From positions 1 through 64,000 of IMG/VR virus record IMGVR_UViG_3300045988_164919: DNA of 64,000 nucleotides. One strand, 5' to 3'. Positions 20,293-22,454 of this stretch are shown here, piece by piece. The DNA is from a virus. The notes under the pieces are model-generated. The model worked only from the letters and a program-made list of their open reading frames with translations. It did no database searches and was not told the DNA's origin. The translations under genes and the position numbers were made by a program. Within the stretch, counting starts at the first letter, position 1. Every line of letters starts with the position of its first letter.

Positions 20293-21153
20293 TTATTTCA
20301 CAGGAGCTGTTAAGGTAAATATTTTTTTTACGCATTCAATCCAATATAATGCAGCATTTCTATCTACGGTGTTTAAATGCACTATTGTTGTTTTAGTAAA
20401 ATCATCTGGGTCTGGGATTTCCAAATCCCAAATCTTAATAGGATTCATTTTATCTTGGTCTAATACAATACGTCCTTGATTTAAATTATTTAAATTAGTA
20501 ATAATAGTTTCAAAGGTTTTATTTAATAACATAGTATATGTCATTTTTCCATTTTCATCTTCATTCCAATTGCTTACAAGACCAGCAACACTATTATCAC
20601 CAAATTCATTTATATAATTTTTATCATTATAAATTTTACTGACTTTTAAATTTTCAAATAATCTATAAATAACCTTTTTAAGATTATTTATGTCATCACT
20701 TTCTGCAATACGAGAAATATGTAAATTCTTTTCTAACTCATTTACTTCTTCACTTGTACAGCCGTTATTACAATGTCCAATACAACCTCCAGAGCAAGTT
20801 CCTGAACATTGTTCAGCACAAGCTGTTGTACAAGTACCAGAGCATCCTCCACTGCAAGAGCCTTCACAGCTAGAACAAGAACCATCACAGCCGCCACAAT
20901 TTCCAGTGCAACTATCACAATCACCAGTACAATCTGTATCACATGTCCGCTTCGGTCCGCAATCTCCACTGCATTCTCCACAACCTGCTACACAATCATT
21001 GCCAGAGCAACTAGAACAAGTATTTCCACTATTCATACTATCCCCATTGAAACAGCCTGTTTCACAGGCTCCTCCTGGTAGCCCTGGTTGATAATTATCT
21101 GAGCCTTCATATCGACCCATTGTTCTACTATCTCGTCCTGAGTTACAAGCCAT
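20293..21153 (-). CDS. extremely Cys-rich protein (about 40 Cys within about 130 aa) with a C-terminal globular domain
   Basis: N-terminal GCGECSGDCGPKRTCDTDCTGDCDSCTGNCGGCDGSCSSCEGSCSGGC...; immediately downstream of a radical SAM/SPASM gene. Confidence 0.5.
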   Translation of the reverse strand: MACNSGRDSRTMGRYEGSDNYQPGLPGGACETGCFNGDSMNSGNTCSSCSGNDCVAGCGECSGDCGPKRTCDTDCTGDCDSCTGNCGGCDGSCSSCEGSCSGGCSGTCTTACAEQCSGTCSGGCIGHCNNGCTSEEVNELEKNLHISRIAESDDINNLKKVIYRLFENLKVSKIYNDKNYINEFGDNSVAGLVSNWNEDENGKMTYTMLLNKTFETIITNLNNLNQGRIVLDQDKMNPIKIWDLEIPDPDDFTKTTIVHLNTVDRNAALYWIECVKKIFTLTAPVK

Positions 21154-21155
21154 AA

Positions 21156-22454
21156 TTACTCCTCCTTCATTAAATAATTGTATTCTTCTTGAGTAATAAT
21201 TTTATTTACAAAATTATAATTAAATTTACCGATTCTATTTAAAGCTTTTTTATCATTTAGTTTTTTATAAAAATATATAGTAGCTAAACATTCAGCTTTA
21301 TGACATTCACAAATAGTTGTTGTTCTATGGTATAAATCTCCTGTCATTTGATAACTACAACCAGCGCACCAAGCACATCCTCTTTCTATTGGACATTCTA
21401 GGCATTCTTTAGTAGATATATTCTTTTTTGTATAGTTTTTAAAAGATTCTAATATCTATTTTTCAGAATTAGTATAACCGATACCATGTTCTACATTACC
21501 AATTATTAAAGGAGGTACATCATTTCCTAAAGAACTTTCCATAAAACGAATACAAGTATAAATGTCTCCTTTCCAATCTAAAGAAAACATATTAGAAGTG
21601 GTTCCACACCATCTTTCTTCCAATTTTTCTATTTCTAATGGAGCATAATTATTAGGTTCAAAAGGTCTAAAATAAATATCATCTTGTAAATTATTTTCAA
21701 TGATATAATCAGCAATTTTTTTTAATTCATTATAATAAGTTTTAATATAATCTTCTTTAGTCCATACATCTTCAAAAACACAATTAGCATAGATATTATT
21801 AAATCCTAATTCAATCATATTTTTTATTCCTTTAAATACATAAGGTAGATTATCTGGACTAAAAGTTATTTTAGTTCCTTCATTGCCCTTTTTAAGTAAA
21901 TCTAACCCAGCTTTAACTGCTAAATCATAACTTCCTTGACCATTAGGGAATAAACGGCATTTATCATGTAATTCTTTACAACCATCAATAGTTATATTTA
22001 TTGACGCAAATGTTCCATATTTTTTTAAAAACTTCTATACTTTTGGAGTAAAATATAAAACTCCATTAGAGCATAAACTAAAAACATGGAACATTTGCCA
22101 TGGAGAATCTTTTGGTATTTCATTTAATTTATTTTCAAAGTATTCACAAATCTAATCAATTAAATCAATTTCTAATAAAGGTTCTCCTCCAATAAAATCT
22201 AAAATGAATCCAAATATTTTTTCTTCATAAAAATATGATTCAGGATTAGTTCGTCCTTCAAATATATAATCAATAAATTTTTTAGCGATTTCAAAAGACA
22301 TTTTATGATGTCCTTTATTTATTTGATAACAATAAGAGCAACATAAATTACAATCATCAGTCACTTGAAAAGTTAAACTTTTCATCATTTTTCCATTCCA
22401 TGATGGAAATAAAGTATAAACGTAATCAGCATACTAGTAATTAGGTTCTAACAT
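21156..22454 (-). CDS. radical SAM enzyme with SPASM domain (anSME/peptide-maturase-like); several TAGs
   Basis: DDCNLCCSYCY (CxxxCxxC), GGEPLL, C-terminal CECHKAEC / CLECPIERGCAWCAGC clusters. Confidence 0.65.

Follow-up and report, generated by a model that had tools for sequence, protein, structure and literature searches.

A probable rearranged CXXX-repeat radical SAM maturation system in a phage

The window described here is a stretch of 64,000 nucleotides of viral DNA (positions 1 to 64,000 of the IMG/VR record IMGVR_UViG_3300045988_164919). It encodes a radical S-adenosylmethionine (SAM)/SPASM enzyme (21156-22454) and, directly downstream, a protein with an array of regularly spaced cysteines (20293-21153). 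This locus is probably a version of the CXXX-repeat radical SAM maturation system (TIGR04115/04116/04117) that is carried by a phage and has been rearranged. That the enzyme and the Cys-repeat protein are a maturase and its substrate is strongly supported by the sequences: the enzyme belongs to TIGR04115, a CXXX-repeat open reading frame (ORF) accompanies it in nearly all related loci, the cysteines of the targets are conserved while the X residues drift, and in the window the two genes have Shine-Dalgarno sites and are separated by only 2 nt. An earlier reading of this DNA, made without any database search (the sequence-only reading), had suspected such a couple, and in this respect it is upheld.

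A radical SAM/SPASM enzyme and its cysteine-array target

The enzyme scores 391.8 bits with the NCBIfam model TIGR04115 ("radical SAM peptide maturase, CXXX-repeat target family"), for a cutoff of 350 bits, and its residues 25-395 align with positions 2-359 of the 359-position profile. The CX3CX2C motif of the radical SAM domain (C35/C39/C42) is intact. Like the seven cysteines of the SPASM domain (C283, C301, C351, C354, C360, C363 and C382), it is invariant in an alignment of the window enzyme with 17 homologues (18 sequences). The radical SAM/SPASM assignment of the sequence-only reading is thus correct, provided that TAG is read as glutamine (see below). The same reading described the Cys clusters as anSME-like: both types of motif are present, but the score with the anSME model (TIGR03942) is 45.7 bits for a cutoff of 349.45, and only the N-terminal half of the protein is aligned.

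After TIGR04115, the next-best families all form thioethers. These are PapB (NF047865, 183.7 bits, cutoff 340, E 5e-54, with a nearly full-length alignment), the SCIFF maturase (TIGR03974, 113.5 bits, cutoff 425) and QhpD (TIGR03906, 103.9 bits, cutoff 453, E 7.8e-30). Membership of the SCIFF, PapB or anSME families was rejected, since every score is below the cutoff of the family. The search with SCIFF and ranthipeptide models that had been proposed as a check therefore places the enzyme outside SCIFF and PapB, although these are its nearest characterised relatives.

The nearest solved structure is that of the thioether former CteB (5WGG, E 1.6e-20; residues 21-388 of the query aligned with residues 93-441 of CteB). 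The CX3CX2C motif and the seven SPASM cysteines of the window enzyme are all matched in this alignment. Because it begins at residue 93 of CteB, the enzyme is devoid of an N-terminal RRE, the recognition element of RiPPs (peptides synthesized on the ribosome and modified after translation). With the PADLOC defence models, the enzyme gives nothing beyond a generic likeness of its radical SAM core to viperins (31 bits, 80 residues aligned).

The target contains 27 cysteines, of which 26 fall within residues 1-135 and 25 within residues 30-132. The figure of roughly 40 Cys in the first 130 or so residues, given in the sequence-only reading, is an overcount; the position of the protein directly downstream of the enzyme and the non-repetitive nature of its C-terminal part (residues 133-286) were seen correctly. 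Cysteine makes up 9.4% of the target, compared to 1.7% of all the proteins of the window, and 24% of the array itself, in a Gly/Ser-rich setting. The array consists of 16 CXXX and 5 CXX units, in which X is mostly Gly, Ser, Thr or Asp. Twenty-one of the 24 spacings between its cysteines equal 3 or 4, a number that none of 100,000 shuffled sequences attains (maximum 15), and no other array of this kind is found in the six-frame translations of the window. Since the array is not a DNA tandem repeat, its periodicity is maintained at the protein level. The Cys columns are invariant in 10 target homologues and the X positions vary.

The loci of enzyme relatives show how general this pairing is. The sample comprised 80 viral and 80 genome loci, plus loci obtained by looking up the exact protein; the scan of viral contigs alone confirmed 510 stretches with enzyme relatives. 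The loci were scanned in all frames, and an ORF with at least 7 Cys spaced 3-5 residues apart was counted as a CXXX-repeat ORF. Such an ORF is present on the strand of the enzyme in 161 of 169 related loci, from viral contigs and bacterial genomes. Among 179 distinct targets, a spacing of 4 is seen 4452 times and a spacing of 3 is seen 1643 times, while others are rare, and the X positions are mainly occupied by Ser, Gly and Thr.

In most phage and Clostridia loci, the target is encoded upstream of the enzyme and has a conserved N-terminal domain of about 105 residues followed by 17-145 Cys; some of these canonical-type targets bear further C-terminal domains. The targets from phage loci are proteins of 150-650 residues, with conserved domains at one end of the array or at both. 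The more remote enzyme relatives (about 40% identity, from Clostridium and Paenibacillus) are found near peptides of 54-68 residues made of a leader and CXXX repeats. The clade of the window (L001, L005, L010-L013 and L090) is organised the other way round: its target genes lie downstream of the enzyme, and the targets begin with the array and continue with a domain of about 150 residues.

This C-terminal domain is as conserved as the array among close homologues, and it is seen in the phage clade of the window only. Fifteen matches were obtained in 5.8 billion clusters, all at least 73% identical, and phmmer, run exhaustively against 1.84 billion representatives, gave 12 matches, of which about 8 are real, all from the same clade. 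No match was found among PDB sequences or in Pfam, NCBIfam or PHROGs. Homology with the canonical 105-residue N-domain is unsupported (hhalign probability 0.7%, with one short helix aligned).

A profile of canonical N-domains (alignment A5: L007, L022, L027 and others) retrieves two PDB sequences at E ≤ 1. The only one from a phage is the PhiCrAss001 head-fibre protein gp21/gp29 (7QOF chain j). This match falls short of significance (E 0.95, 12.9 bits), and it aligns the motifs 'IT..EI..IK.K' and 'Y.YT..PT'; it is a lead to a possible fibre-anchor role of the canonical N-domain. As to the additional C-terminal domain of the 536-residue targets of locus L050, neither Pfam nor PHROGs gives a match, and a claim that it binds receptors was dropped for this reason. 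The longest array, with 145 Cys, is in a 650-residue protein (L137, 2333-4285), on a contig from a metagenome-assembled genome labelled 'uncultured Tenericutes bacterium'. Locus L172 (9452-13628) has two accessory paralogues in tandem and two targets, each of which lies behind a paralogous protein of about 170 residues.

TAG recoding, small proteins and the transcription unit

When the standard bacterial code is applied, the gene of the enzyme falls into three ORFs. It contains four in-frame TAG (codons 7, 101, 140 and 333) and ends with TAA. The phage of the window, a large gut phage, reads TAG as glutamine, as deduced from three observations: a suppressor tRNA with the anticodon CTA is encoded in the window (Table 1); ORFs of at least 100 residues cover 86% of the window when TAG is a sense codon, compared to 53% with the standard code; and the residue opposite TAG in the homologues is Gln in 17 of 17 cases at residue 140 and in 13 of 17 at residue 101. 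The enzyme is made only if the CTA tRNA decodes TAG, and this tRNA is required from codon 7 onward. The target gene has no in-frame TAG. In this copy of the system, the suppressor tRNA would therefore govern the synthesis of the maturase and not that of the substrate; this timing argument is weak because the targets of relatives contain 1-5 TAG codons each. The recoding of the stop codon conceals such enzymes from standard annotation, as the copy in the window shows. The dependence on TAG had been overlooked in the sequence-only reading, as had the small proteins of the system and the NCBIfam name that already exists for it.

TAG codons are unevenly distributed in the window: the gyrase/topoisomerase block (9067-15042) is free of them, and a gene of 1182 residues (36535-40083) has as many as 16. 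The GC content is about 30%, and almost all genes are on a single strand. The DNA matches deposited phages in short patches only. The radical SAM protein of an IMG/VR contig of 188 kb (L010) is 97% identical to the window enzyme, and the enzyme-target pair is syntenic in related contigs of 185-211 kb.

Table 1. Positions in the window of the CXXX-repeat locus, its boundaries and associated features
Feature	Position	Strand	Remarks
Canonical accessory, 95 residues	15985-16272	(-)	Matched end to end by the accessory profile A4 (42.5 bits)
Intrinsic-terminator-like 17-bp hairpin	20233-20285	(-)	Followed by UUUUCUUUUU; just past the target stop; downstream boundary
Target gene, 286 residues	20293-21153	(-)	ATG 2 nt past the enzyme TAA; AAGGAGGAG precedes the ATG
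Non-repetitive C-terminal domain (target residues 133-286)	20296-20757	(-)	Orphan, only in the phage clade of the window
CXXX/CXX Cys array (target residues 30-132)	20758-21066	(-)	Predicted modification site
Radical SAM/SPASM maturase, CXXX-repeat target family, 432 residues	21156-22454	(-)	TIGR04115 above cutoff; also phrog_1802
ORF of 77 residues, directly upstream of the enzyme	22458-22691	(-)	Own Shine-Dalgarno; its 3' end holds the Shine-Dalgarno of the enzyme
Terminator-like hairpin (14 bp, then a T run)	22830-22861	(-)	Between the flotillin-like gene and the 77-residue ORF; upstream boundary
Suppressor tRNA, anticodon CTA	41641-41715	(-)	Inside a cluster of six tRNAs (40221-44514)

Judging from the sequence, a single transcription unit with tight coupling, set between two terminator-like hairpins, comprises the 77-residue ORF, the enzyme and the target. 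The downstream hairpin has a predicted stability of -23.5 kcal/mol (z = -7.7), which none of 200 shuffled sequences equals, and it overlaps a near-consensus promoter-like site of the next gene (TTGACA-17-TATACT). That gene encodes a protein of 184 residues (19680-20234, (-) strand), which is about 90% conserved in L005 although the enzyme of L005 is only 59% identical to that of the window. The 184-residue protein matches the accessory profile weakly (14 bits over 45 residues, in the helical part).

In 114 of 167 loci, the gene next upstream of the enzyme encodes an accessory protein of about 100 residues. In the window, this place is taken by the 77-residue ORF, and an ORF is kept at the same position in L001, L005, L010-L015 and L090 (alignment A3, a set particular to the clade). 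When A3 is compared with the alignment of the canonical accessory (A4), hhalign gives an end-to-end match with a probability of 76.9% (E 2.1e-5); a direct hmmsearch of the 77-residue ORF with A4 gives just 8.3 bits. The ORF may thus be a diverged and shortened paralogue of the accessory. It has no match in Pfam, NCBIfam, PHROGs or PADLOC.

The canonical accessory of the window is a 95-residue protein encoded about 4 kb beyond the pair and about 6.2 kb from the start of the enzyme gene. The 184-residue gene, a PIN-PhoH gene, a CHAP/amidase endolysin gene and a holin-like gene lie in between, and five syntenic loci show the accessory at this same distal place. The system is therefore split in the window, with a three-gene unit and the canonical accessory apart. 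Neither the 77-residue nor the 95-residue ORF matches TIGR04116 ("CXXX repeat peptide modification system protein"), and one member of the accessory family gives a weak end-to-end match with it (E 0.014, 15.5 bits, cutoff 50). The AlphaFold2 (AF2) model of the accessory family, with a mean predicted local distance difference test score (pLDDT) of 92.6, shows a long helical hairpin on a three-stranded sheet. It has no significant structural neighbour: the matches listed are mostly generic helical hairpins and none is termed RRE- or PqqD-like. The accessory profile does not match any PDB sequence. The proposal that the accessory is a stand-alone RRE was rejected, because this confident model has no RRE-like match.

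Related systems, chemistry and competing explanations

The CXXX-repeat system (TIGR04115 maturase, TIGR04116 associated protein, TIGR04117 target and Pfam PF27846 target) is defined by comparative genomics only. The window locus resembles it in having an enzyme that scores above the TIGR04115 cutoff, a target with 21 Cys-X2-3 units and an accessory-type protein of about 95 residues. It departs from it in several ways. Most CXXX targets have a domain of about 105 residues or a short leader before the array, whereas here the array is N-terminal and is joined to an orphan C-domain; the target is downstream of the enzyme instead of upstream; the accessory is displaced by several genes and the 77-residue ORF is in its place; and the carrier is a TAG-recoded phage of about 188 kb. 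On these grounds, the couple belongs to the CXXX-repeat system by its enzyme and by the pairing, and deviates from it in target architecture, gene order, accessory and carrier.

PapB is the best-scoring characterised family. It forms thioethers between the sulfur of Cys and the C-beta of Asp in the six CX3D motifs of PapA, which gives the ranthipeptide freyrasin (PMC9413430). The window couple shares with PapB/PapA the SPASM architecture and a substrate made of tandem short Cys units; its substrate has no regular CX3D and is a protein instead of a leader-plus-core peptide. Compared to CteB/SCIFF, the enzyme lacks the N-terminal RRE and the target is not a six-Cys SCIFF peptide. QhpD is a radical SAM/SPASM enzyme that introduces intraprotein Cys-Asp/Glu thioethers in QhpC, a subunit of quinohemoprotein amine dehydrogenase. 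As in QhpC, the substrate would be a protein that retains its crosslinked part as a structural element, but the window has no dehydrogenase context and the cysteines are far more numerous.

The antiphage system HXS consists of the repeat effector HxsA, the radical SAM enzymes HxsB and HxsC and the small protein HxsD (PMC13128918). HxsA is a protein with repeats that is matured by radical SAM enzymes (PMC13128918); together with the peptide PapA, it is a precedent for repeat substrates. The likeness to the window is one of outline: a radical SAM/SPASM enzyme, a small helper and a repeat protein, in a setting of phage-host conflict. In contrast to the window locus, HXS is bacterial and directed against phages, has His-Xaa-Ser repeats and two radical SAM enzymes, and its periplasmic effector has a peptidoglycan-binding domain. 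The HxsB model is among the weaker matches of the window enzyme (69.8 bits), and neither the target nor the small ORFs match the PADLOC defence models. From these comparisons, the couple is distinct from the PapB, SCIFF and anSME systems and independent of an RRE, and it matches no known defence system.

Thioether crosslinking is probably the reaction catalysed by the enzyme, by analogy with PapB, CteB and QhpD. The enzyme would cleave SAM reductively at the cluster bound by CX3CX2C, and the radical would remove a hydrogen from a carbon of a residue adjacent to a Cys. This carbon would then be bonded to the Cys sulfur, held at an auxiliary SPASM cluster, and the cycle would be reiterated along the array, so that residues 30-132 may be converted to up to about 25 small thioether rings. 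The ringed array would be rigid and devoid of free thiols, it would withstand reduction and proteases, and it would remain joined to a globular C-terminal domain; the mature product would be a protein and not a freed peptide. In general, the acceptor cannot be a carboxylate side chain as in PapA, because conservation is absent from all X positions and Asp or Glu occurs in just 16% of the CXXX units of the 179 targets. The backbone C-alpha or a carbon of a small residue would be a more likely acceptor. Recruitment of the substrate is also expected to differ from that in classical RiPP systems, because the enzyme has no RRE and the accessory does not have the fold of one.

The same couple could carry out another reaction on the cysteines, such as oxidation to formylglycine or a dehydro residue, the formation of C-C crosslinks, or the insertion or extrusion of sulfur. 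SPASM enzymes are diverse, and anSME, cyclophane-forming and other SPASM families are found among the weaker matches; the X positions also offer no conserved acceptor residue, and no characterised member of TIGR04115 was found. We consider another chemistry rather unlikely, in view of the three best non-self families (PapB, SCIFF maturase and QhpD), which are all thioether formers, of the poor anSME score (45.7 bits vs 349), and of the fact that Cys is the sole invariant residue of the array, as in thioether substrates. The array could also bind metals without being covalently modified, either like a metallothionein or as a scaffold for the Fe-S clusters of the radical SAM enzymes of the phage. 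Its content of 24% Cys in a Gly/Ser-rich context fits such a module, as does the fact that the window encodes at least four radical SAM proteins, which depend on Fe-S clusters. Against it speak the specific co-occurrence of the arrays and TIGR04115-type maturases (161 of 169 loci, among them loci with the short leader-plus-core peptides that are typical of RiPPs) and the translational coupling of enzyme and target. Spacings kept strictly at 4 or 3 in arrays that reach 145 Cys are not known as a cluster-binding pattern. The family-wide pairing with a SPASM enzyme of the peptide-maturase type makes the metal module improbable.

Another possibility is that the 286-residue protein is a RiPP precursor, in which the C-domain serves as a recognition 'follower' and from which the Cys part is released as a bioactive peptide (bacteriocin or signal). 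The PapB and SCIFF systems yield peptides (PMC9413430), and the relatives with about 40% identity in Clostridium and Paenibacillus are encoded beside leader-plus-CXXX peptides of 54-68 residues. In the window, however, no protease or exporter is encoded in the operon or its flanks, and the target sequence, as read, has neither signal peptide nor cleavage motif. Moreover, phage arrays are embedded in proteins of 150-650 residues that bear conserved domains, and the C-domain of the window target is as conserved as the array, which makes the release of a peptide hard to credit. That the two genes are neighbours by chance, the enzyme having its substrate elsewhere and the Cys-rich protein being an unmodified low-complexity protein, is very improbable given the pairing in 161 of 169 loci, the conserved synteny, the 2-nt spacing and the fact that the family is defined by the pairing.

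Several observations weigh against the reading of the locus as a rearranged CXXX-repeat system with thioether chemistry. The domain order of the target and the gene order are reversed with respect to the majority type, the canonical accessory lies apart from the pair, and the link between the 77-residue ORF and the accessory family is only moderate. The target has no match at E ≤ 10 in NCBIfam, including TIGR04117, and none in the Pfam copy searched, from which PF27846 is absent. TIGR04117 is itself a model of the paralogue type that matches a canonical phage target just weakly, and PF27846 gives a faint, precomputed match in L172 alone. The AF2 model of the target, based on a 10-sequence alignment, is unusable (pLDDT 33). 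The chemistry is taken from relatives (PapB, SCIFF) whose cutoffs the enzyme fails; the low proportion of units with Asp or Glu does not fit the acceptor type of PapB, and no published characterisation of any TIGR04115 member was found in the literature.

Cassettes in other phages and meaning of the system

In mid-size phages, the cassette is found within tail modules. In L170 it is two genes past the tape-measure protein, in L172 it comes after a Phage_tail_C protein, and in L171 its neighbours are very large proteins and a Laminin_G_3 protein. Cultured SPN3US-like jumbo phages carry it as well. In the phage SPN3US, gp166 is a CXXX protein, and the best NCBIfam match of gp163 is TIGR04115, below threshold (125.6 bits). 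SPN3US gp163-gp166 is a distant version of the cassette, and it adjoins the tail proteins gp167 and gp168 (PMC5105663). Similarly, gp185 and gp183 of the phage Asesino are beside the radical SAM proteins gp181 and gp180.

The tail-module context of L170, L171, L172, L008, SPN3US and Asesino suggests that the target may be a structural protein of the virion. This role is weakened by two observations. The virion proteomics of SPN3US lists gp160, gp167-171 and gp173 and none of gp163-166, which argues against an abundant virion role in this phage. The neighbours of the window cassette are flotillin, PhoH and lysis genes and not structural genes.

SPN3US gp166 (L174, 4501-4909) and Asesino gp185 (L173, 971-1426) are CXXX-repeat proteins that are annotated merely as hypothetical. 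The annotated start of SPN3US_0166 is at locus position 4574, and the ORF begins at 4501 when the conserved N-terminus is included. In both phages, the cluster also encodes a second radical SAM protein (gp164 / gp181) and a protein of about 295 residues (gp165 / gp182). No paper on CXXX-repeat systems or on the radical SAM genes of SPN3US was found in the literature.

Other genes of the window were noted alongside this system. A flotillin-like SPFH/Band 7 protein of 459 residues with an N-terminal membrane segment (22860-24239, (-) strand) is encoded directly upstream of the cassette, and this position is conserved in L001 and L005. A separate cluster on the (-) strand (44580-54195) contains three radical SAM proteins (48875-50245, 50245-51747 and 52192-54195), none of which reaches any named NCBIfam family; the last one is fused to a glycosyltransferase-like region. 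The cluster also encodes several paralogous proteins of about 290 residues and a protein of 171 residues (51699-52214) with a tail rich in Ser, Gly, Tyr, His and Trp. This 171-residue protein could be another maturase target. Its similarity to targets with the canonical N-domain is not significant, and it was rejected as one of them.

By synteny with L001 and its Pfam matches, a protein of 826 residues (27477-29957, (-) strand) is a relative of the major vault protein (MVP_shoulder, Vault_3). Two others are assigned by synteny with the same locus: a 512-residue protein (30536-32074, (-) strand) with DUF2828/DUF7788 and a 147-residue NADAR protein (26680-27123, (-) strand). Together, the three are an unusual gene set for a phage. 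Lastly, a 378-residue protein (34405-35541, (-) strand) has the N-terminal signal-peptide-like sequence MKKFIAIIMAVIMVMSFATIAFA and may be secreted or associated with the cell wall.

No chemistry, product structure or biological role was found reported for the CXXX-repeat radical SAM family. The survey shows that the system is abundant in phage genomes, that its targets there are proteins of 150-650 residues, and that the cassette is often in tail modules. Because SPN3US is genetically tractable, with amber mutants and virion proteomics, the function of the system is directly testable.

A tentative extension, which we hold as possible but doubtful, is that tailed phages, from phages of gut Clostridia to SPN3US-like jumbo phages, turn Cys-X3 arrays of 17-145 Cys into polycyclic thioether 'ladders'. 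If this is true, RiPP-type chemistry would act on full-size phage proteins, which may be tail-module proteins or infection factors, and the window would represent a rearranged branch with a new effector domain. Such ladders would be an unusual and new protein material, and their formation a new viral use of RiPP chemistry. The value of the finding thus lies less in this single locus than in the widespread and unstudied radical SAM maturation of phage Cys-array proteins to which it points.

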